DNA of 64,000 nt from a phage: sequence record NC_101837.1, one strand, 5' to 3'. The notes under the pieces are model-generated. The model searched no databases and was not told the DNA's origin. It saw only the letters and a program-made list of their open reading frames with translations. Made by a program: the position numbers and the translations under genes. Every line of letters begins with the position of its first letter. The stretch's first letter is position 1. Positions 48,046 to 57,494 of this stretch are shown piece after piece.

Positions 48046-48276
48046 ATGAGTCATAACTCCAAGTGGAAGGATCTTGGTTTTGCAAGTCGGGCAGAGTATG
48101 TTGGTTGGCTTTGGTTCAATGGCCTGACAAACGATATTAAAATGTATGATGATGTCTATTATGACGAGTATACAGGTAAAATTATAAATATCTCTGTAGA
48201 AGAGGATACTTTTATCCAGCAAGATACTGATACCTGCCTTGATAAATACGTTAGTGAAGTGGAGGAAGCAAATTGA
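48046..48276 (+). CDS. hypothetical protein
   Basis: ATG 48046 preceded by AAGGTGG; stop overlaps nrdA start. Confidence 0.4.
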   Translation: MSHNSKWKDLGFASRAEYVGWLWFNGLTNDIKMYDDVYYDEYTGKIINISVEEDTFIQQDTDTCLDKYVSEVEEAN

Positions 48277-50588
48277 TCACCAAGGTAATTAAAAGCAACG
48301 GATGTGAAGTGGCATTCGATCCAGAACGTTTAAATAAGGCAGCTATTTTCGGTGACGACGGTAACGGCAATTGGTCACATATTGCACTGGATGCCTACAA
48401 GCGGTTGTATGATGGATGTACAACCAAAGAAGTTAACCAAGCTATTATAGACTCTTGTGTTAGCCGTAAAGACGAAGCACATTCCCGTATGGCTGGTCGT
48501 GTTCTTATTGGTCAGATTTATAAAGAGGCTTTTGGAGGGTTTACAAAGATCCCTTCCTTACCATCATTTTACAATACCATGGTTGAGAAAGGGTATTGGG
48601 AGGATATGGGCTATAGCTTTACCGAGCTAAACACTTTAGACGCTGTTATTGACCACAGTAAAGATCTCGGTTATGGCTATGCAGTCCTTAAACAGTTTCG
48701 CGACAAATACGGGATCAAGGATACTCTTAAAGACACCCTGTTTGAATCTCCCCAGATGATGTTTATGGGGATAGCAATGGCTGTCATGAAGAATATGCCG
48801 AAAGAACGTCGTATCAACGATGTTGTAAAATTATACACTTATCTGTCCGACTTAAAGATCAATGCCCCGACACCGTACTTAAACGGGCTGCGCACAGGTA
48901 AGACAGGGTATGCATCTTGTTGTGTAATAAAAGCTGACGATACAGCAAAATCTATTGGTGTGGCACGTGAAGTTGCGTACACAATGACGGTTAACCAAGC
49001 AGGTATCGGCTACTACTTATCCTCAAGATCTGCAGGCGATGGTGTTCGTGGTAACACTATTAAACATATGGGTAAGATTCCATATTATCGAGGTATTGAT
49101 GCTGGTGTTAAGGAGAACAGACAACAATCACGTGGCGGTTCTGCAACAGTATCATTCCTTGCACTGGACCCGCAGATTGATGAGCTAATCCGTTTGAGAA
49201 ACCCTATGACTGTTGCTTCAAAAAGAATCAACACCATGGACTACTCCATCGGTATTAATAGGTCGTTTATCAACCGTGTGGCTAAGAATTTAGATTGGAT
49301 GCTTGTTTCTTATAAGCACGCTCCTCAACTGCATGAGGGTATCTTCACCATGTCTATGGAGGAGTTCGATGCAGAGGTTGAGCGTATTGCTAAAGATGAC
49401 AGTATTCCTAAAACATGGATCCGAGCCAGAGATCTTGCTGTTGAACTGATCACGCAGCGTACTGAGGTGGGAAGGCTGTATGTATACTGGACAGATGAGA
49501 TGAATAGACATACACCTTTTAAAGATGTGATCTATTCAAGTAACCTGTGTGCAGAAATAGCCCTCCCGACAAAAGGCTATTCAGATATGCGTAATATCTT
49601 CAAGTACGATGCTGATGATGGAGAGGTTGCATTGTGCTTCCTGTCATCTCTTGTAGCTGGAAGGGTTACTCCAGAGGAGTATGAGGATGTTGCATACTAC
49701 ACGGTGCTTATGATTGACAATGTTATGGAAATCATGACATATCCGTATGAAAATATGGAAAGCACAGTTAAAAAACGCAGATCCATCGGGGTTGGCCTTA
49801 CCAATGTTGCACATTTTATTGCCAGCCACAAGGTTACTTACGGGTCTCCTGAAAGTAAACAGCTCGTTCACGATCTTGCAGAACTTCACAGCTACAGCTT
49901 GCATAAGGCAAGTTTACGGTTGGCAAAAGAGCGTGGTGTCTGCGAGTGGATGCATAAAACAAAATATCCAGAAGGTTGGTTACCAATCGACACCTATAAC
50001 AAAGAGGTCGATAGCGTGGTGAAAGATCCTTCTCTTAAACAGGATTGGGAAGGGTTACGTAAAGAAATCATTGAGAATGGTGGGCTACGTAATAGCGTTC
50101 TTGAAGCATATATGCCTAATGAAAGCTCTTCGCTGGCAACAAACACCACTAACGGGGTTTATCCTGTCCGTGAGCACATTATCTTTAAAAAGTCGCCACA
50201 AGGGCAGGTGCTGTTTATCGTTCCTGACTATGATGAGTTGAAAGAGTATTACACCTCGGCTTGGGACGTTGATACTAACGACATGATCGATATGTATGCC
50301 GTGATTCAAAAATTCACAGGTCAGGCAATCAGCGCGGATTTATACATAGACTACACCAAGTTGAAAGATGGTAAAATTTCAATGAAGGAGCAGTTAGGGT
50401 ACCTTATCCGTGCCACTAAATTCGGGATGAAGACATGGTATTATTTAAACTCTAGGGTTGGTGCTGGTGACTCCTTGGCAGAGGAACTTCATGCCAAGAA
50501 ACAGGCTGAAGATGAAACCAGAAAGAACTATCCTTTGATTGCAGATAGTTCAGTTGAAGATCCGTATTGCGAAAGCTGTGCACTATAA
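48273..50588 (+). CDS. nrdA: ribonucleoside-diphosphate reductase large subunit (class Ia)
   Basis: N-terminal ATP-cone (VIKSNGCEVAFDPERL), active-site NLCAEIALPT, C-terminal redox Cys pair (YCESCAL); TTG start with GGAGGAAG RBS. Confidence 0.9.
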   Translation: MITKVIKSNGCEVAFDPERLNKAAIFGDDGNGNWSHIALDAYKRLYDGCTTKEVNQAIIDSCVSRKDEAHSRMAGRVLIGQIYKEAFGGFTKIPSLPSFYNTMVEKGYWEDMGYSFTELNTLDAVIDHSKDLGYGYAVLKQFRDKYGIKDTLKDTLFESPQMMFMGIAMAVMKNMPKERRINDVVKLYTYLSDLKINAPTPYLNGLRTGKTGYASCCVIKADDTAKSIGVAREVAYTMTVNQAGIGYYLSSRSAGDGVRGNTIKHMGKIPYYRGIDAGVKENRQQSRGGSATVSFLALDPQIDELIRLRNPMTVASKRINTMDYSIGINRSFINRVAKNLDWMLVSYKHAPQLHEGIFTMSMEEFDAEVERIAKDDSIPKTWIRARDLAVELITQRTEVGRLYVYWTDEMNRHTPFKDVIYSSNLCAEIALPTKGYSDMRNIFKYDADDGEVALCFLSSLVAGRVTPEEYEDVAYYTVLMIDNVMEIMTYPYENMESTVKKRRSIGVGLTNVAHFIASHKVTYGSPESKQLVHDLAELHSYSLHKASLRLAKERGVCEWMHKTKYPEGWLPIDTYNKEVDSVVKDPSLKQDWEGLRKEIIENGGLRNSVLEAYMPNESSSLATNTTNGVYPVREHIIFKKSPQGQVLFIVPDYDELKEYYTSAWDVDTNDMIDMYAVIQKFTGQAISADLYIDYTKLKDGKISMKEQLGYLIRATKFGMKTWYYLNSRVGAGDSLAEELHAKKQAEDETRKNYPLIADSSVEDPYCESCAL

Positions 50589-50595
50589 TTTTAAA

Positions 50596-50614
50596 GGGGC
50601 TTCGGCCCCATTTT
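50596..50614 (+). terminator. hairpin/attenuator-like terminator between nrdA and nrdB
   Basis: GGGGC-UUCG-GCCCC hairpin followed by AUUUU. Confidence 0.45.
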
Positions 50615-50626
50615 AGAGGTAGAATA

Positions 50627-51715
50627 ATGGCTGTATTTAATGCTGAGAACACCGCTCATAAAACTGGTGACTATCCGCTGTTTCTGGGACAGCAAATGGG
50701 TATGTACGACTCTATCAACAAAAAATATCCACAACTGTTTGAACTATACAAAAAACAAAAAGAGCAAGATTGGGCAGAGGATGAAGTGGATTTGTCGCAA
50801 TCTATTTCAGATTTTGTAACATGCTCAAAGTCAACTTATGACGTGATGGTGCAGACCTTGATGTGGCAATGGGAGGCTGATAGCGTTGCGGCAAGATCGA
50901 TCATCTGCCTCTTTTCACCATTCATCACTAATAGTGAGCTTTTCACTCTATTGATGAAACAGTCAGAGATTGAAGTTCTTCACGCACTAACTTACTCAGA
51001 GATTGTTAGACAATGCCTCCCTAATGCCCGTGAGATTATAGAAGAGATTCAGGAAAACCAAAACGTTCTGAGCAGATCCGGAGTTATTGTCAAATACATG
51101 CAAGAGCTTGAGGTTATTGGTGCAAAATACCGACTGGATCCTTCTAGTGTTGAAGAAGATGTTGTGCGGAAATGCATTCTTAGAGCGCTTTTTGCACTTT
51201 TAGCTCTGGAAAGTATTGAGTTTATTGCAAGTTTTGCATGCACTTTCGCAGTAGCTGAACAGGGTATCTTTGTTCAGGTGGCGCAGCTTGTTCAAAAAAT
51301 CATGCTTGACGAAATGCTACATTCGAAAGGTGATTTTGCCATCATTGATATCTTGCTTAATGATCCCGCATGGGAGAAAAGCTTCCTTGAGATAAAGGGG
51401 GAGTTAAAAGAGATTCTTGATGAAGTACGAACCAAAGAGTACGGTTGGAGTGACTATATTTTCAGCGAAGGAAGAGCGATTATAGGTCTTAACTCACCGT
51501 TGCTTAAAGAGTGGGTTGACTATAACTGCTCACCGATTTATGATTACTACGACATCGACAAAGACTTTGTGCCGCCAACAAAGGACCCGCTACCGTTTAT
51601 GCAGGTGTGGATGAAACCTTCATTGCAACAGACGGCGAACCAAGAAATGTCGAACACTGACTACCGCGTCAACACAACTGTTAACGACGCTGAAGAAGAA
51701 ATTTGGGAGTTTTAA
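50627..51715 (+). CDS. nrdB: ribonucleoside-diphosphate reductase small subunit
   Basis: Start at ATG 50627 (MAVFNAEN...) with GAGG RBS; ferritin-like diiron protein size; adjacent to nrdA. Confidence 0.8.
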   Translation: MAVFNAENTAHKTGDYPLFLGQQMGMYDSINKKYPQLFELYKKQKEQDWAEDEVDLSQSISDFVTCSKSTYDVMVQTLMWQWEADSVAARSIICLFSPFITNSELFTLLMKQSEIEVLHALTYSEIVRQCLPNAREIIEEIQENQNVLSRSGVIVKYMQELEVIGAKYRLDPSSVEEDVVRKCILRALFALLALESIEFIASFACTFAVAEQGIFVQVAQLVQKIMLDEMLHSKGDFAIIDILLNDPAWEKSFLEIKGELKEILDEVRTKEYGWSDYIFSEGRAIIGLNSPLLKEWVDYNCSPIYDYYDIDKDFVPPTKDPLPFMQVWMKPSLQQTANQEMSNTDYRVNTTVNDAEEEIWEF

Positions 51716-51718
51716 TAT

Positions 51719-51997
51719 ATGAGCTGCGAAAAATCTTTTTTCATCATCATTTACGGTAAGGATAACTGCCCACATTGTGTCAGAGCAAAAGAATTTGCAA
51801 TCAGCAAAGGTCTGCCTTTTGTATATAAGACACTTGGCGAGGGCTACACAAAAGAAGAGCTTATTGAGAAGTGTAGTCCAATCGTCCCCAGAACGTTGCC
51901 GCAGATCTTCTTAGAAAGCGATCTTGACAGTGTCCATATAGGCGGTGCAGACGATTTCATCTCTTTTGTTAAGAATGGTTTTGGAGAGAAAAAGTGA
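51719..51997 (+). CDS. glutaredoxin/NrdH-like redoxin
   Basis: 92 aa; CPHC active-site motif (YGKDNCPHCVRAKEF). Confidence 0.7.
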   Translation: MSCEKSFFIIIYGKDNCPHCVRAKEFAISKGLPFVYKTLGEGYTKEELIEKCSPIVPRTLPQIFLESDLDSVHIGGADDFISFVKNGFGEKK

Positions 51998-52854
51998 AAG
52001 TTGTAAAACGGGACGGTAGAGAAGAGTTTTATAACGGAATTAAGGTGATCAAGGCGGCAGAGTCCGCCTTACTTGAGTCTGGACATACTGAAGAAGAAGC
52101 TTACCGGATAGCTTGTGCAGTTAATGAAGTTGTTGCTAACAATCTACCAACCGACCAGTGCACGATCTCTGTAAAAAATATCCATATCCTTGTTGAAGAT
52201 GCTCTTATGGATATGGGTTTAAAATGTGCAGCCAGAGAATACATCCAGTATAGACAGACAAGAGATAATAACAGAGAGGCAGGTGGAAAACTGCTTGCAG
52301 ATATTAGTGGCTTCTTGGATCGAACTTGTGATGAATTTACAAAAGAAAACGCAAATAAGCCTACTAATCATGTACACACTCATCGCGACCTGCTTGCAGG
52401 CATCCTTAGCAAACACCTTGCATCAACACAGATCCTGCCAGACCGTGTTTCAGAAGAGCACAATAAAGGCTTCATCCATGTGCATGATCTTGACTACTTG
52501 ATCAGTCCGTTAACAAACTGTTGTTTGGTAAATTATCCAGATATGTTGGAAAACGGATTCAACATTGGCAACGCCCATGTCAGTAAGCCGAAGTCAATAG
52601 GGGTTGCAACAACAATCCTTAGTCAAATCTCTAGCGCGGTAGCTAGTGCTCAATATGGTGGTCAGACTATGAGCCATATTGATCATTATCTGGCACAGTA
52701 TGCTGAAGCAACCTATGAGAAGAACCTTAAATTTTGCCAGGAACATTGGTTGCCGGATGCTGAAACTGTTGCAATGCAAATGACAGATAAAGACGTGTTT
52801 GACAGCATGCAGACGTTGCTTTATCAGATCAACACACTAACCTCGGTAAACGGT
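51994..52854 (+). CDS. nrdD: anaerobic ribonucleoside-triphosphate reductase NrdD, exon 1
   Basis: GTG start; ATP-cone (VVKRDGREEF), conserved class III RNR segments; frame hits stop only because intron begins at 52855. Confidence 0.8.
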
Positions 52855-53111
52855 TAACAAACTGGCCGTTTTAAAACTCTGCTAACCTCAGTATGAGGGG
52901 TCAGCTGATCGCTGGCTAACGGGGAACGCTAAGGCGAAAGCTATGCCAATCCCGTGACTAGCTTCACAAGGAGTGAGGCGGTTGTAACGACTAACCTTTT
53001 GGTGTAGGGATTATGGAAGATTCCGAAACGCAGGGGTCTGATTAAGAATCACACGGTGTGATTTCAGGCAAGAGATAGTCTGGCCTTGTGGAAACATAAG
53101 GGTGGGGACCG
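52855..53111 (+). other. group I self-splicing intron (ORF-less) interrupting nrdD
   Basis: 5' exon ends in U (52854); intron ends in G (53111); internal guide GCCGUU (52865-52870) pairs with exon AACGGU including U.G; P7-like GACUAG/CUAGUC-type elements; NrdD sequence ...NTLTSVNG|QTPFITLS... continuous after removal. Confidence 0.75.
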
Positions 53112-54374
53112 CAAACCCCTTTTATCACATTAAGTTTAGGTTTGGACACTTCGGTCTTTGGTAGAATGATTACCAAAAATTACTTGAAAGTCCACAAAAT
53201 GGGTCTTGGTGAAGAACGTATCACACCTGTGTTCCCTAAAGTGCTGTTCTTCCTGGAAGAGGGTGTCAACATGAACCCTGGGGATCCTAACTATGATTTG
53301 AAACGATTAGCTCTGGAATGCTGTGCAGAACGTATCTATCCTGACTTCGTATCTGTACCACTAAATAGAAAAGTGACAGGCTCGACAGATGGCAAAGTAA
53401 CTAGCATGGGTTGCAGGAGTTTTCTTAGCAAATACAATGACTTGGAAACAGGCGAGGAGAAATACCTTGGCAGATTTAACTTAGGCGTTGTTAGCCTTAA
53501 CCTGCCAATGATTGCGGCAAAAGCTAAGACGGAAGGTGTTGATTTCTTTGCAGTTCTTGACGAATACTTGGATCTTGCATATGAGGCTCACCTTGTAAGG
53601 GTTAACCGTCTAAAAGGAACAAAGGCAGGGCAGAACCCCATCATGTGGTGTGAAGGCGCTCTTGCTCGCCTGGATCCTGAAGAGAGTATTGATAAACTCT
53701 TCTATGACGGGTACGCTTCCATCAGTATTGGGTATATTGGTGTGTATGAAACCTGTCAGATTTTGGGCAGAGAGGGTGACAAGGCTTTAGCTCTTGGAAT
53801 CCTTCAGCACATGAGAGATGCTTGTGAGCGATACAAGAAGGAAAGTAGACTAGCATTTAGCTTGTACGGCACTCCTTCTGAGAGTCTATGCTATAAAGCT
53901 GCAACCTGTCTGGATCGTGAATATCCGGAAGTGTTGAAGCACGAGCATGAATATCTCACCAACAGTTTCCATCAGCCAGTGTGGATAAATAGCTCTCCTT
54001 TTGATAAGTGGGAGTATGAGGAAGGTTTTGCTATGATCTCCTCTGGTGGCAACATTGGATACGTAGAGACACCTAACCTGAAAAACAACCTGGATGCTTT
54101 AGAGGCTCTTGTTGACTTCGGGTATAAACATATTATGTATTTTGGTATTAACCAACCTGTGGATAAATGTCTCAAGTGTGGTTTCTCTGGTGAGTTCAGT
54201 GCAACAGCTAAAGGGTTCTGCTGCCCTGCGTGCGGATGCCACGATGAACAATATATCTCAGTGATCCGAAGAGTGTCTGGATATCTTTCCAGTCCTAACT
54301 CCCGTCCTTACAATAAAGGTAAGCAAGCGGAAGTTATCGAGCGAGTTAAGCACTACGGAAGTTGTGGTTGCTGA
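53112..54374 (+). CDS. nrdD: anaerobic ribonucleoside-triphosphate reductase NrdD, exon 2
   Basis: Frame open from 53100; ITPVFPK...EEGVN..., C-terminal zinc-ribbon CLKCG...CPACG and glycyl-radical region. Confidence 0.8.
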   Translation, partial: QTPFITLSLGLDTSVFGRMITKNYLKVHKMGLGEERITPVFPKVLFFLEEGVNMNPGDPNYDLKRLALECCAERIYPDFVSVPLNRKVTGSTDGKVTSMGCRSFLSKYNDLETGEEKYLGRFNLGVVSLNLPMIAAKAKTEGVDFFAVLDEYLDLAYEAHLVRVNRLKGTKAGQNPIMWCEGALARLDPEESIDKLFYDGYASISIGYIGVYETCQILGREGDKALALGILQHMRDACERYKKESRLAFSLYGTPSESLCYKAATCLDREYPEVLKHEHEYLTNSFHQPVWINSSPFDKWEYEEGFAMISSGGNIGYVETPNLKNNLDALEALVDFGYKHIMYFGINQPVDKCLKCGFSGEFSATAKGFCCPACGCHDEQYISVIRRVSGYLSSPNSRPYNKGKQAEVIERVKHYGSCGC

Positions 54375-54438
54375 TACTTGACAAAAGCCACAAGGATGTG
54401 GCACTATACAGATGTTTAGGGAAGTTAGGAAACAAGAA

Positions 54439-55404
54439 ATGGCTAAATTATCAACAGAAGAGTTTATAGAGAAGGCGAAAATCATTCACGGTTATAAATA
54501 CGATTACACGAAAACAGTGTACGTGGATTGCTATGCGAAGGTTTGCATTACCTGCCAAATCCATGGGGATTTTATGCAAGCACCTTGTAAACACTTGCAA
54601 GGTCGTGGTTGTCCTTTTTGTGCAAAACTTTCTCGTGCTGCAAAGTGTAATAAAGGTCTTAAATTTGTAGAAAGGGCCAAAGAAATCCATGGAGATAAAT
54701 ATGACTACTCTCTCGTATACTACAAGACTTGCAAAGACAGGGTAGAAATAATCTGCAACACTTGTGGAAATCACTTTACACAGACACCTGATAACCATAT
54801 AAATTTGAAAAGAGGTTGTCCAGTTTGCAAGGGGTCAAGAATCTCACAAAGTAAAACATCACCACACGAAAAGTGGGTTGAGTCCATAAGAAGTAGAAAT
54901 CCTTATGTTGAGATATTGGAAGAAATTATTGGGTGGGATAAGAAAGTCCTGTGCTGCTGTAAAGGTTGTAGCCACACATGGTTAACCGTACCAAGCAGTC
55001 TTAAGCAGGGACATGCTTGCCCTAGATGCGCTAAAACAGGATTTTTATCACACGATAACGGAAAACTCTACATTATGGTTGATGATCCAGAAGTACCTAC
55101 ATTTATGAAAATAGGGGTCAGTCATAATGAAAGTAAGCGAAGAGACCAGATACTTAAAAGTGCACAAAGATCTAGAGCTGGTATCCGCGATCTTCACATA
55201 GTGAAAACGTTGGAAGGATCAACTGAAAACATGCTGGCTGTAGAAAAATCTATGCACAAAGCCTTCAGTAAATATAAAATAAACTTCCCTGTAAAATTTG
55301 ATGGTAGTACCGAATTCTTTAACTACAGACCTGAAGTGTTCAGTATGGTAGAATCAGCGCACAGAGAGATTTGTTGTAAACATAGGACAGGTAATAACCT
55401 GTAG
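54439..55404 (+). CDS. GIY-YIG-superfamily (T5orf172-like) nuclease with N-terminal zinc-finger repeats; putative free-standing homing endonuclease
   Basis: C-terminal GKLYIMVDDPEVPTFMKIGVSHNESKRRDQIL resembles T5orf172/MUG113 motif; N-terminal repeated IHGxKYDY...CxxC...GCPxC units; start at ATG 54439 (AGGA RBS). Confidence 0.55.
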   Translation: MAKLSTEEFIEKAKIIHGYKYDYTKTVYVDCYAKVCITCQIHGDFMQAPCKHLQGRGCPFCAKLSRAAKCNKGLKFVERAKEIHGDKYDYSLVYYKTCKDRVEIICNTCGNHFTQTPDNHINLKRGCPVCKGSRISQSKTSPHEKWVESIRSRNPYVEILEEIIGWDKKVLCCCKGCSHTWLTVPSSLKQGHACPRCAKTGFLSHDNGKLYIMVDDPEVPTFMKIGVSHNESKRRDQILKSAQRSRAGIRDLHIVKTLEGSTENMLAVEKSMHKAFSKYKINFPVKFDGSTEFFNYRPEVFSMVESAHREICCKHRTGNNL

Positions 55405-55452
55405 AGCCATATATCAACCTTTAAACATGTTATAAACTAAAGGAGGTGCAGC

Positions 55453-55569
55453 ATGTCATCAGGCATTTATAAAATTTGCAAGTGTGGTTGTCGTTGCAAT
55501 CTTCGTTGGTGCAAGGCACTGGACGATTTTATTTGGCATTGCCCTGAATGTGATACGGAGTATCTATGA
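55453..55569 (+). CDS. small cysteine-rich (zinc-ribbon-like) peptide
   Basis: 38 codons, strong AAAGGAGGTG RBS, 8 Cys (CKCGCRC...WHCPEC), stop overlaps nrdG start (ATGA); below ORF-track size cutoff. Confidence 0.4.
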   Translation: MSSGIYKICKCGCRCNLRWCKALDDFIWHCPECDTEYL

Positions 55570-56039
55570 ACATTGTCGGATACACAGAAGTATCTTACAC
55601 AGAAGGGCCAGGTATTAGAACTGCCTTGTGGGTATCTGGGTGCCCACACGCTTGCCCTGGTTGCTTTAATCAGGCATTTTGGTCAAAAGATAAGGGGAGG
55701 GAGTTCACTGAAGAAGATTTGCAAAAAATCTTGTCAGATCTGGATAACCCGTCTGTGTGCGGTATCTCTCTGCTGGGTGGAGAACCCTTAGCATACTATA
55801 ATGAGCCAGGTATTATTAGCCTGATGGAGAAAATTAAGGAAAAATTTGGTGACAAGAAAACTATTCTTGTATATACTGGGTTCACATTTGACCATATCTC
55901 TAGTGATGTTCTTAAACTGGCTGATATCATCATTGACGGTAAGTATGTAAAAGATTTACCAACCAAGAAACCGTTCCGAGGCAGTGATAACCAAAGAATG
56001 TTTAAAAAAGTATCAGGCGGTTGGGTTCAGGTAGACTAG
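55566..56039 (+). CDS. nrdG: anaerobic ribonucleotide reductase activating protein
   Basis: Radical-SAM cluster motif CPHACPGC (CxxxCxxC) near N-terminus; 157 aa; adjacent to nrdD. Confidence 0.85.
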   Translation: MNIVGYTEVSYTEGPGIRTALWVSGCPHACPGCFNQAFWSKDKGREFTEEDLQKILSDLDNPSVCGISLLGGEPLAYYNEPGIISLMEKIKEKFGDKKTILVYTGFTFDHISSDVLKLADIIIDGKYVKDLPTKKPFRGSDNQRMFKKVSGGWVQVD

Positions 56040-56602: not shown

Positions 56603-57391
56603 ATGGGTCGAGCTAAAGAAACAAAACGCATGCGTGATGAAGCTAGAGAGGCTCGCAAATCTGATCGCCTGCGTAAGGCTGCTGAGAAATTTGCTGACGA
56701 AAGAGAGCACACCGCTCCAGCTCTCCGACCAATGAATAAGAAGCAGCAAAAGTATCTTGATTATCTAGGGTCACGTAAGATTATTATTGTAAACGGCGTG
56801 TTTGGATCCGGTAAGACATTTATGGCATCTGCATATGCAGGTGATCTTCTGCGTAAGAACGAGATTGATAAGATCATTGTTGCACGTCCTTACGTCCAGA
56901 CAGGAAAGACTTCAGGATTTAAACCCGGAAATGCAATGCAGAAACTGTGGCCCTATCTTCGAAGCATGATGGACACGATTTGTCGTCGTGTTGGCAAAGG
57001 TGCTTTTGCCGCAATGCTGGGAGACGGTCAGAACAGTCGTATCGAGATTTGTGAAGTTGAAAGCATTCGTGGTCGTAGTTTCGATGAGCGATGCTTTGTC
57101 CTGATTGACGAGGCACAGCAAACTAACCCTGAAGAAATGTTGTCAATTATCACAAGGATCTCTGATCAAGCCACCCTTGTAATTATGGGTGATAATAGCC
57201 AACGTGACATCCCTGGTAAATCTGGCCTTGCATGGGTGACGGATTTCTTTACTCGTCATCCAGATCCTGAGGTTGGAATGATCAGCTTTGATAGTCCAGA
57301 CGATGTCGTTCGTTCCGGGTTGGGTCGTCAAATCGCACTCAATCTTATTGAGGATCGTGCAAATCATATTTGGACCCCTGTTTCCGAGTAA
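56603..57391 (+). CDS. phoH: PhoH-like ATPase
   Basis: Walker A GVFGSGKTF, Walker B-like VLIDEAQ, PhoH-family length (262 aa). Confidence 0.75.
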   Translation: MGRAKETKRMRDEAREARKSDRLRKAAEKFADEREHTAPALRPMNKKQQKYLDYLGSRKIIIVNGVFGSGKTFMASAYAGDLLRKNEIDKIIVARPYVQTGKTSGFKPGNAMQKLWPYLRSMMDTICRRVGKGAFAAMLGDGQNSRIEICEVESIRGRSFDERCFVLIDEAQQTNPEEMLSIITRISDQATLVIMGDNSQRDIPGKSGLAWVTDFFTRHPDPEVGMISFDSPDDVVRSGLGRQIALNLIEDRANHIWTPVSE

Positions 57392-57435
57392 TACAGAAGG
57401 GTGGTTATTCCACCCTTAAATATCTAAAACAGTTG

Positions 57436-57464
57436 TTGACAAACAGGTAAGCTTTAGATATTAT
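57436..57464 (+). promoter_or_regulatory. sigma70-type promoter (AGTTGTTGACA family)
   Basis: TTGACA (57436-57441), 17-bp spacer, TATTAT (57459-57464), then TATCGG; preceded by hairpin AAGGGUGG/CCACCCUU after phoH. Confidence 0.5.
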
Positions 57465-57494
57465 TATCGGACAAGACAAGGAGAAGGAGATAGT

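Follow-up and report, generated by a model that had tools for sequence, protein, structure and literature searches.

A probable free-standing homing endonuclease gene of the T5orf172 type between nrdD and nrdG of an rV5-like coliphage

We found that positions 54439–55404 of the window, by which we mean the whole 64-kb stretch of phage DNA under analysis, most probably hold a free-standing homing endonuclease gene (HEG) of the T5orf172 branch of the GIY-YIG superfamily, acting by the mechanism proposed below; we put the probability of this reading at roughly 0.78. The window belongs to a Vequintavirus, an rV5-like phage of E. coli. We class the gene with the free-standing HEGs described by Barth et al. 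(2023), as a recently mobile member of an already known type. Beside RNR genes, T5orf172 HEGs that carry repeated CapR/DUF723-type zinc fingers are a common finding (PMC10448857).

In the proposed mechanism, the HEG would be expressed by read-through from the nrdD–nrdG operon, as we assume, and its product would bind DNA through three tandem Cys4 zinc-finger modules. The C-terminal GIY-YIG-fold domain would then cut the HEG-less allele of a co-infecting relative near the empty slot. Based on two mapped conversion tracts, the cut is predicted to fall between ~90 bp upstream (last nrdD codons) and ~100 bp downstream (Cys-rich ORF) of the insertion point. Repair by recombination from the HEG-bearing genome would copy the ~1-kb cassette with tens of bp of flank, and the HEG-bearing allele, in which the cassette stands in place of ~22 bp of the spacer, would thereby be immune.

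The cassette and its product

The features of the locus, all on the plus strand, are as follows.

51994..54374 (+): nrdD, the upstream flank, with exon 1 at 51994-52854 and exon 2 at 53112-54374 (ORF list, relatives' annotation)
52855..53111 (+): ORF-less group I intron in nrdD, a 257-bp insertion (exact indel versus intron-less JeffSchatz; Rfam RF00028)
54376..55557 (+): recombination (conversion) tract in which the window follows WalterGehring (SNP phasing and sliding-window identity)
54387..54402 (+): conserved hairpin GCCACAAGGATGTGGC, directly upstream of the insertion point (alignment, terminator scan)
54408..55440 (+): HEG cassette, a 1033-bp insertion versus HEG-less relatives (pairwise BLAST and alignments with HeinrichReichert and JeffSchatz)
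54439..55404 (+): HEG coding sequence, 321 aa plus stop (ORF list), with an alternative upstream ATG at 54412
54451..54624 (+): zinc-finger module 1, aa 5-62, IHGYKYDY helix and CITC...CPFC, DUF723-like
54655..54831 (+): zinc-finger module 2, aa 73-131, IHGDKYDY and CNTC...CPVC
54859..55032 (+): zinc-finger module 3, aa 141-198, CKGC...CPRC, of the DUF4379 kind
55036..55392 (+): T5orf172/MUG113 (predicted GIY-YIG-fold) domain, aa 200-318
55453..55569 (+): conserved Cys-rich ORF of 38 codons (MSSGIYKICKCGCRCNLRWCKALDDFIWHCPECDTEYL) between the HEG and nrdG, overlapping the nrdG start
55566..56039 (+): nrdG (class III RNR activase), the downstream flank (ORF list, relatives' annotation)

A first, sequence-only reading of this DNA had placed the gene between nrdD and nrdG, and this placement holds: nrdD exon 2 ends at 54374 and nrdG occupies 55566–56039, with the Cys-rich ORF also intervening. 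This small ORF lies outside the cassette and is context here; it is annotated in relatives, was converted together with the HEG and shows unusual variability from one relative to another, at 89–97% identity versus 97–100% in the neighbouring genes. The cassette replaces ~22 bp (TATTATTGACACACAGTGAGCT) of the empty nrdD–nrdG spacer, and the flanks of the empty-slot relatives HeinrichReichert and JeffSchatz are ~93–99% identical to those of the window. The left edge of the slot is marked by the hairpin GCCACAAGGATGTGGC, which is present in all aligned allele types except type B (I29, CM1 and navn). Type B replaces the 3′ end of nrdD, and the standard end is kept in JEP1. A promoter and terminator scan returned nothing above shuffled expectation and found no promoter for the HEG. 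A dense patch of SNPs in nrdD (54215–54272) was considered as a target or immunity site and rejected, as each of its two haplotypes is found both in the presence and in the absence of every HEG type, and the window itself has the 'HEG-less' haplotype.

The open reading frame extends from 54412 to 55404 on the plus strand. Its start codon is likely ATG 54439, because an AGGA stands 8 nt upstream and the N-termini of homologues align there, reading M-(A/R)-K-L-(S/T)-T-E-E-F from the Met of this codon. The upstream ATG 54412, which the GenBank annotators of the orthologue chose, has no Shine-Dalgarno sequence. The orthologue, bas51_0186 of phage WalterGehring ('putative homing endonuclease'), shares 98% amino acid identity with the HEG protein. 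A tblastn search found no second copy of the gene in the 64-kb window. The minus-strand ORF at 54451–54798 (115 aa) is taken as a probable shadow ORF of the HEG.

The N-terminal part of the protein contains three Cys4 units (aa 5–62, 73–131 and 141–198). Three or more Cys/His units of an IHGxKYDY kind had been proposed from the sequence; the count of three stands, but the units are not identical, and the IHGxKYDY helix is found in modules 1 and 2 only and is absent from module 3. Module 1 is modelled by AF2 with a pLDDT of ~95, and DUF723 and DUF4379 domains are on record for the 98%-identical protein P0001. Pfam DUF4379 matches the HEG protein at 30.0 bits (cut-off 24.5) in two stretches, the better of which is aa 97–132 in module 2, where the Cys, Gly and Pro columns are conserved. 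Module 3 appears to join, in frame, the first half of one module to the final CPxC knuckle of the module after it. In the protein alignment of slot alleles, the allele shared by the window and WalterGehring has one module fewer than those of Mangalyan and JEP1, and the DNA match to Mangalyan is broken at 54923–55018. By analogy with CapR (PMC10448857), the HEG product would bind DNA via these modules.

The C-terminal domain scores above the cut-offs of two Pfam families: T5orf172 (PF10544), with 27.3 bits against 20 over aa 210–300 and profile positions 3–92 of 101, and MUG113 (PF13455), with 24.2 bits against 22.3. The protein also matches PHROG 681, 'endonuclease', with E = 4e-54. The predicted fold has the GIY-YIG core, a three-stranded β-sheet flanked by helices (β-β-α-β-α), and matches the GIY-YIG nucleases SLX1 and I-TevI. 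The assignment to a T5orf172/GIY-YIG-type protein with an N-terminal zinc-finger array is thus borne out by the Pfam models, PHROG 681 and the predicted fold, and the C-terminal T5orf172/MUG113 motif on which it had been based, YIMVDDPEVPTFMKIGVSHNESKRRDQIL, is found at aa 211–239.

The GIY-YIG catalytic constellation consists of a Tyr in β1, a Tyr in β2, an Arg in α1, a Glu in the helix after β3 and an Asn after that. In the HEG protein, the candidate catalytic residues are Y211, K224, R234, E269 and N282, mapped by secondary-structure order, spacing and conservation rather than by residue-level superposition. Across 50 homologues, Y211, K224, G226, R234 and E269 are invariant and N282 is nearly so. 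The second Tyr of the motif, that of 'YIG', is replaced by the invariant Lys (K224), and Y211, R234, E269 and N282 are at the expected structural positions. An hhalign comparison of the family alignment with the I-TevI catalytic domain gave no alignment for the nuclease domain, and a phmmer search of the HEG protein against PDB sequences gave chance-level matches only (best E = 0.096). Nuclease activity is what we infer from the sequence and from ICP1 Odn, the sole T5orf172 domain that we found with DNA cleavage in vitro and an inactive Glu-to-Ala mutant (E180A; PMC8263062).

Polymorphism, transfer and allelic diversity

A scan of IMG/VR with NrdG yielded two loci only, and the GenBank phage collection was used for the survey instead, giving 121 Vequintavirus records. 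A homologue of the HEG occurs in ~26 of the 121 (slot position checked in 10 of these 26 and presumed in the others), and ~95 show none. Among the 60 listed rows classified by span, about half have an empty slot and no intron. Comparison of the nrdD–nrdG interval across relatives, which the sequence-only reading had suggested as a check for presence/absence polymorphism, reveals a precise one, the 1033-bp cassette standing against ~22 bp.

Two recombination tracts bear on how the cassette travels. The first is in the window itself, which is a mosaic: it is 100% identical to JeffSchatz up to ~52300 and 100% identical to CM1 over ~52700–54280, resembles WalterGehring only at 54376–55557, and then is again 100% identical to JeffSchatz. 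Within the tract 54376–55557 the window is like the HEG-bearing WalterGehring and unlike its otherwise closest HEG-less backbones. The second tract, the cleaner case, is in the metagenomic contig L015, whose HEG is 99.6% identical to that of Mangalyan; outside the HEG region the L015 backbone is 81–86% identical to Mangalyan and 74–92% to the window (backbone identity in this case is also summarised as about 88%). A sister contig, L007, has flanks 99.0–99.6% identical to those of L015 and is without the 1204-bp cassette, with 18 bp in its place. L015 is Mangalyan-like from ~85 bp left of the cassette to 15–100 bp right of it (donor-like SNPs from 3882 to ~5182–5271, cassette at 3966–5169). The flank in both mapped tracts of this allele group is thus at most ~120 bp.

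As judged from these sequence comparisons, the gene has clearly moved between phages recently, alone and not carrying the nearby intron; the direction of transfer, read from the same comparisons, is presumptive. Polymorphism, allele diversity, transfer and short co-converted flanks are population signatures of homing, and they agree with the earlier description of the gene as free-standing and of homing type. Ordinary recombination during co-infection, with no targeted break, could also have produced the mosaic pattern. Even for ICP1, experiments have yet to confirm that T5orf172 genes home (PMC10448857).

Divergent alleles of at least four types occupy the slot, with 98/72, 52, 47 and 44% amino acid identity, and the CM1 copy, of type B, is frameshifted. 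In the protein alignment, the slot alleles differ by whole zinc-finger modules. We raise a tentative extension, which is speculative and rather doubtful as a whole: the nrdD–nrdG spacer of Vequintaviruses may be one slot contested by at least four T5orf172 alleles, their arrays reshuffled module by module, each rearrangement retargeting the enzyme, and the alleles displacing one another and invading empty sites. Such HEG-versus-HEG turnover, if true, would account for the hypervariable small ORF and for the nrdD 3′ end beside the slot.

In this reading of the alleles, that of JEP1 looks like a chimera and that of the window like an in-frame fusion minus one module.

The nrdD intron and competing explanations

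The ORF-less intron that had been read in nrdD is real. It is an exact 257-bp indel relative to JeffSchatz, follows U and ends in G, and its excision restores the NrdD frame, joining SVNG to QTPF. The Rfam group I model RF00028 matches it with 29.3 bits and E = 2e-4, short of the gathering score of 50. The HEG ATG lies 1327 bp beyond the intron 3′ end, in accord with the ~1.3 kb previously given. The ORF-less intron is present, at least 99% identical, in 13 records, and an HNH-bearing sister form in 28. WalterGehring and Mangalyan, the nearest HEG relatives, have the HNH-ORF form, 87.5% identical in the ribozyme core. Because the cores share only 87.5% identity, we rejected a recent origin of the ORF-less intron by deletion from the HNH-bearing one. 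In one phage with exons 73–90% identical, the ORF-less intron is 98% identical, and something therefore moves it. We regard it as a separate, older passenger of the same mobile-element hotspot, not mobilised by the HEG.

The alternative that survives best, though it is improbable, gives the HEG a part in moving the intron by co-conversion. The enzyme would cut near its own slot, and occasional long tracts would drag the intron, 1.3–1.5 kb away, into intron-less genomes, which would help the ORF-less intron persist; T4 MobE mobilises the nrdB intron with its defunct I-TevIII exactly so (PMC2790892). The CM1-like block that contains the intron in the window would suit such a long tract, running from ~150 bp upstream of the intron to ~54280, where the type-B HEG-associated sequence of CM1 begins. 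Both mapped tracts of this allele group are, however, short, and genomes with the intron and without the HEG are common. Carriage of T5orf172 genes is nominally higher with the ORF-less intron (5 of 13 records) than in the rest (21 of 108), but this enrichment is not significant: the genes occur in 5/13 genomes that have the ORF-less intron, 5/28 that have the HNH form and 16/80 that have neither (Fisher p = 0.15 and 0.64), in records that are phylogenetically non-independent and with slot and intron status verified for part of the 26 carriers.

It is unlikely, somewhat more so than co-conversion of the intron, that the gene has no homing function, or has lost it, and serves instead in repression, like CapR, or as a nuclease that, like Odn, attacks a satellite or competing phage, or persists as an inactive relic moved by general recombination. 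Domestication of T5orf172 and zinc-finger proteins is known, in one case giving a repressor (CapR, PMC8096241) and in another a nuclease directed at a satellite (Odn, PMC8263062), and a further point on this side is the Lys in place of the second motif Tyr. The gene is nevertheless dispensable, judging by the ~95 of 121 relatives without a homologue; the slot holds its divergent alleles and a frameshifted copy; the candidate catalytic residues are invariant across the 50 homologues; and the recombination breakpoints hug the cassette in two independent cases. These are signatures of a selfish element and not of a fixed host-beneficial gene. A role as a weapon against co-infecting relatives is compatible with homing.

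Least probable is collaborative homing, which the sequence-only reading had raised and in which the enzyme would cut intron-less nrdD at the intron site, ~1.5 kb upstream, so that intron and HEG are copied together. In its favour are the ORF-less intron 1.3 kb upstream of the HEG, the evident movement of that intron, and precedents, namely psbA/F-CphI, the T7-like phages and a T5orf172 gene of ICP1 that adjoins a terminase intron without an ORF (PMC10448857). In addition, an intron is present at the site in every carrier of this allele group so far (the window, WalterGehring/L014, Mangalyan and L015), although a sample of four to five genomes, partly independent, carries little weight, and contig L016 ends before the intron site.

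Independent assortment, separate recombination blocks and entry of the HEG into genomes already bearing another form of the intron all speak against it. No intron is present in 16 of the 26 HEG carriers (verified in three of the 16, I29, phiWec189 and typing phage 14, and for the rest taken from absence in a megablast intron search), and 8 of the 13 carriers of the ORF-less intron have no HEG in the slot (Fisher p = 0.15). Two intron forms, 87.5% identical in the core, occur among carriers of this one allele group. In the window, the intron lies in the CM1-identical block (~52700–54280) and the HEG in the separate WalterGehring-like block (54376–55557). The ORF-less intron is already present in L007, the sister contig without the HEG, and the L015 tract ends more than 1.4 kb from the intron. 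The intron site was thus already occupied in the L015 lineage and therefore was not the site cleaved in that transfer, for which, on the sequence comparison, collaborative homing is largely refuted.

Relation to known systems and significance

The closest match to the free-standing HEG proposed here is the set of T5orf172 HEGs of ICP1 and other phages (Barth, Dunham & Seed 2023, NAR Genom Bioinform, PMC10448857), which likewise have a C-terminal T5orf172 domain and N-terminal tandem CapR/DUF723-type modules, as 'beads on a string'. They too are free-standing and vary among isolates, with frameshifted or in-frame-deleted alleles, and they lie beside essential genes, with RNR genes in 33% of neighbourhoods, and at genetic-exchange boundaries; one ICP1 copy adjoins an ORF-less intron. 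The present case differs in its host group, E. coli Vequintavirus, with ~34% identity to the Vibrio phage proteins, and in offering one intergenic slot with at least four divergent alleles and two tracts mapped to tens of bp. WalterGehring bas51_0186 (MZ501111; BASEL collection) is in the same slot and orientation and is known by annotation only; its surroundings differ in that the nrdD intron is the HNH-bearing form and that two additional small ORFs and a divergent nrdG lie downstream.

Odn of ICP1 (Gp88; eLife 2021, PMC8263062) has a T5orf172 domain with the conserved Arg and Glu, but it carries a RepA_N DNA-binding domain and no zinc-finger array, and is an anti-satellite weapon rather than a homing element. 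T4 MobE (Wilson & Edgell 2009, PMC2790892) is likewise a promoterless free-standing HEG between two RNR genes (nrdA/nrdB), with a group I intron without a working endonuclease in the adjoining RNR gene. MobE, however, is of the HNH family, nicks nrdB and drives trans-homing of the intron, whereas the tracts mapped here exclude the intron. A free-standing HEG adjoining a gene with an ORF-less group I intron is also found in F-CphI and the psbA intron of cyanophage S-PM2 and in T7-like phages (Zeng et al. 2009, Bonocora & Shub 2009, as cited in PMC10448857); in those collaborative systems the enzyme cuts the intron site and intron and HEG travel together, whereas here they assort independently. 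Compared with I-TevI and the T4 Seg proteins, the domain order is reversed, with the nuclease at the C-terminus, KIG stands for YIG and the DNA-binding modules are of other kinds; similarity to these proteins was not detectable in sequence (hhalign against I-TevI).

We consider the locus a clean, well-documented example rather than a discovery, a zinc-finger/T5orf172 gene in a common group of therapeutic-candidate coliphages. The gene behaves as a recently mobile homing element, with its predicted target narrowed to ~200 bp. For annotation, some of the mosaicism near the RNR operon can be put down to this gene; its presence is not to be taken as evidence that it mobilises the ORF-less intron. 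The locus offers matched phages with and without the HEG that can be cultured on E. coli K-12 (WalterGehring of the BASEL collection versus HeinrichReichert and JeffSchatz), and its several natural alleles with different zinc-finger arrays are material for testing homing and how the modules read DNA. If the slot is indeed contested among these alleles, the locus would be a natural, tractable system for the recognition code of zinc-finger modules.

The probable endonuclease gene between nrdD and nrdG

The window comes from an rV5-like coliphage of the genus Vequintavirus, and its segment 51900–56200 matches 121 phage records at 90–99% identity. A probable homing endonuclease gene (HEG) sits in the nrdD–nrdG spacer, a position that we call the slot.

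Gene order around the slot (window positions)
48273–50588, nrdA
50567–51715, nrdB
51719–51997, glutaredoxin
51994–52854, nrdD exon 1
52855–53111, group I intron, 257 nt
53112–54374, nrdD exon 2
54439–55404, + strand, HEG ORF
55453–55569, conserved 38-codon Cys-rich ORF
55566–56039, nrdG
56603–57391, phoH

On sequence criteria the HEG ORF is a genuine gene. Its ATG at 54439 has AGGA 8 nt upstream and homologue N-termini begin at the matching Met; an upstream ATG, equivalent to 54412, is the start chosen by GenBank annotators of the orthologue. The HMM search suggested in the sequence-only reading matched T5orf172, together with DUF4379 (treble-clef zinc finger) and MUG113, all above the curated Pfam cut-offs, and PHROGs assigns the protein to family 681 ‘endonuclease’ (4e-54). 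The repeated Cys/His units of that reading are present as three CxxC...CPxC units (aa 5–62, 73–131 and 141–198), but the accompanying IHGxKYDY helix occurs in units 1 and 2 only. The C-terminal domain (aa ~200–318) does contain the T5orf172/MUG113 motif.

An AlphaFold2 model built on an alignment of 50 homologues has a mean pLDDT of 89. Y211, K224, G226, R234 and E269 are invariant among these homologues and N282 is nearly so; K224 replaces the second Tyr of the superfamily (YIG). From the model we infer that the conserved residues occupy the GIY, YIG, Arg, Glu and Asn positions in β-β-α-β-α order; a sequence-profile comparison of the family with I-TevI was uninformative for residue mapping. 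In the T5orf172 protein Odn of phage ICP1, the domain cleaves DNA in vitro and a Glu-to-Ala mutant is dead (PMC8263062). On this evidence, the assignment to a predicted GIY-YIG-like zinc-finger nuclease class holds. In many metagenomic proteins (e.g., P0025, P0071, P0078 and P0107), DUF723/DUF4379 zinc-finger arrays are joined to a different nuclease domain, PF04480 (DUF559/Vsr-like), which makes the DNA-binding array a portable module common to nuclease families.

The insertion is precise: 1033 bp (54408–55440) replaces ~22 bp (TATTATTGACACACAGTGAGCT) of the HEG-less phages HeinrichReichert and JeffSchatz. The left edge of this cassette lies directly 3′ of a conserved hairpin (54387–54402) downstream of the nrdD stop, and the right edge directly 5′ of the AGGAGG of the small Cys-rich ORF. 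This ORF encodes seven Cys (MSSGIYKICKCGCRCNLRWCKALDDFIWHCPECDTEYL), and its end overlaps the start codon of nrdG (ATGA). Most Vequintaviruses examined have it; contig L008 gave no DNA match, and the records of phiWec189 and typing phage 14 do not annotate it. At 89–97% identity it is more variable than the neighbouring genes. Its product may bind zinc and act as a small partner protein of the class III RNR. WalterGehring (L001 5704–6093) and Mangalyan (L003 ~5876–6266) have ~390 bp extra between the small ORF and nrdG, holding two small ORFs; this segment is another variable cassette within the same hotspot. The 5′ part of nrdG is strongly divergent in both phages, with ~25% of the window nrdG alignable, at 84–88%.

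Presence, absence and allele types among relatives

We surveyed the phage collection with the minimal allele as query and read the spans for 60 listed records. About half of these carry neither intron nor HEG, and the remainder have an ORF-less intron alone, an HNH-bearing intron alone or various combinations. Aligned across relatives, the nrdD–nrdG interval is polymorphic for presence and absence: a HEG homologue of at least 44% identity occurs in ~26 of the 121 records (tblastn), with the slot position confirmed in the 10 regions fetched. The slot HEGs sort into at least four allele types.

Allele types (amino acid identity to the window protein)
Type A, window and WalterGehring, 98%
Type A′, Mangalyan, with one extra zinc-finger module, 72%
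Type B, I29, navn and CM1, 52%
Type C, phiWec189, 47%
Type D, SophiaRose and typing phage 14, 44%

The nuclease domains are conserved, and the zinc-finger arrays vary in number and order. By sequence, the JEP1 slot gene looks chimeric and the window/WalterGehring allele looks like two modules fused in-frame; the CM1 copy has a frameshift. T5orf172 HEGs of ICP1 and other phages follow the same pattern, with RNR genes among their commonest neighbours (PMC10448857). The WalterGehring orthologue (bas51_0186 of this BASEL phage, 98%) is already annotated ‘putative homing endonuclease’.

Just downstream of phoH, navn (L005 7833–8094+) and SophiaRose (L006 7261–7520+) carry a second zinc-finger/T5orf172 gene, whose product shares 42–45% identity with the window protein across the zinc-finger modules. 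In the window, the equivalent position (~57392–57494) is empty and no second HEG copy was found. Nineteen unannotated ‘Campylobacter phage’ records (MG0656xx, e.g., MG065647, MG065659 and MG065662), with Campylobacter jejuni as stated host, are 92–98% identical to E. coli Vequintaviruses here, and their host attribution looks doubtful.

The nrdD introns

The sequence-only reading placed an ORF-less group I intron near the HEG, and the features of the 257-bp element indicate that it is genuine. It is an exact indel relative to intron-less nrdD, is preceded by U and ends in G, and its excision restores the frame (...SVNG|QTPF...); the Rfam group I match has E = 2e-4, below the gathering score. 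This intron occurs at ≥99% identity in 13 of the 121 records and a sister intron with an HNH ORF, whose core is only 87.5% identical, in 28; no match to either intron was obtained in the other 80. The ORF-less intron appears to have moved horizontally without an endonuclease of its own, because window 52855–53111 is 98% identical to the metagenomic contigs L007 (4054–4310) and L015 (2166–2422) while the exons are only 73–90% identical. Candidates for what moved it are the sister intron's HNH protein working in trans, HEGs nearby, or simply recombination.

A second site (window ~53411/53412, after codon 100 of exon 2) is empty in the window. It holds a ~750-bp insert with a 510-bp ORF, annotated HNH in JEP1, in navn (L005 3013–3771) and JEP1 (L013 3562–4311), and an ORF-less 251-bp insert in the divergent L007 (4611–4861) and L015 (2723–2973). 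Therefore, introns insert at two independent sites in nrdD, and at both sites ORF-bearing as well as ORF-less forms occur. The nrdD C-terminal zinc-ribbon patch (54215–54272) is sharply dimorphic (CCPACGCHDEQY versus VCPECGNHEEGT, ~30 substitutions in 58 bp) among phages, whether or not they have an intron or a HEG, and resembles an ancient recombination cassette within the gene.

Movement of the HEG and of the intron

SNP phasing and identity comparison reveal that the window is a mosaic of relatives around the HEG.

Closest relatives of window segments
Up to ~52300, JeffSchatz (no intron, no HEG), 100%
~52700–54280, intron included, CM1, 100%
54281–54366, HeinrichReichert-like
54376–55557, cassette and small ORF, WalterGehring-like
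~55560–55800, JeffSchatz, 100%

A second, clearer event is recorded in L015, whose HEG is 99.6% identical in DNA to that of Mangalyan in a backbone only 74–92% identical to the window and, outside the HEG region, 81–86% to Mangalyan. L007 has flanks 99.0–99.6% identical to L015 and 18 bp opposite its 1204-bp cassette; by SNP phasing, L015 is in the Mangalyan state from ~85 bp left to 15–100 bp right of the cassette. From these two independent events, we conclude that conversion tracts hug the cassette. If they are homing events, the break is predicted to fall between the last nrdD codons and the small ORF, ~200 bp of the empty (HEG-less) allele.

Occasional long conversion tracts might drag the intron along, and MobE, the T4 HEG between nrdA and nrdB, is a precedent for an intron carried in this way (PMC2790892); for this locus the model is possible but unsupported. 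The sequence-only reading had raised collaborative homing, in which the HEG cuts intron-less nrdD and so mobilises the ORF-less intron, and this is not supported. Slot HEGs are carried by 5 of 13 ORF-less-intron, 5 of 28 HNH-intron and 16 of 80 no-intron-match records, so that every combination exists (intron-less carriers were verified in I29, phiWec189 and typing phage 14), and the association is not significant in these 121 non-independent records (Fisher p = 0.15 and 0.64). Type A/A′ carriers seen so far, 4–5 partly independent genomes, do all have some intron at the site (L016 ends before it), but in L015 this is because the background lineage already had the intron; its insertion site was therefore not the one cut in that event, and the tract ends >1.4 kb away. 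Furthermore, the window has the intron in one recombination block and the HEG in another, and the nearest HEG relatives hold the HNH-bearing intron form. Barth et al. 2023 discussed T5orf172 genes adjoining ORF-less introns and put forward HEG turnover as an alternative explanation to collaborative homing (PMC10448857).

Precise insertion, allelic variety, horizontal transfer and short conversion tracts together argue for a free-standing GIY-YIG-type HEG, which falls in the zinc-finger/T5orf172 class of the same study (PMC10448857). Experimental proof of homing by any T5orf172 gene is still absent (PMC10448857). The value of the locus is chiefly as a tractable test system: phages with and without the HEG can be grown on E. 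coli K-12, there are several natural HEG alleles, and the interval predicted to contain the target is narrow.
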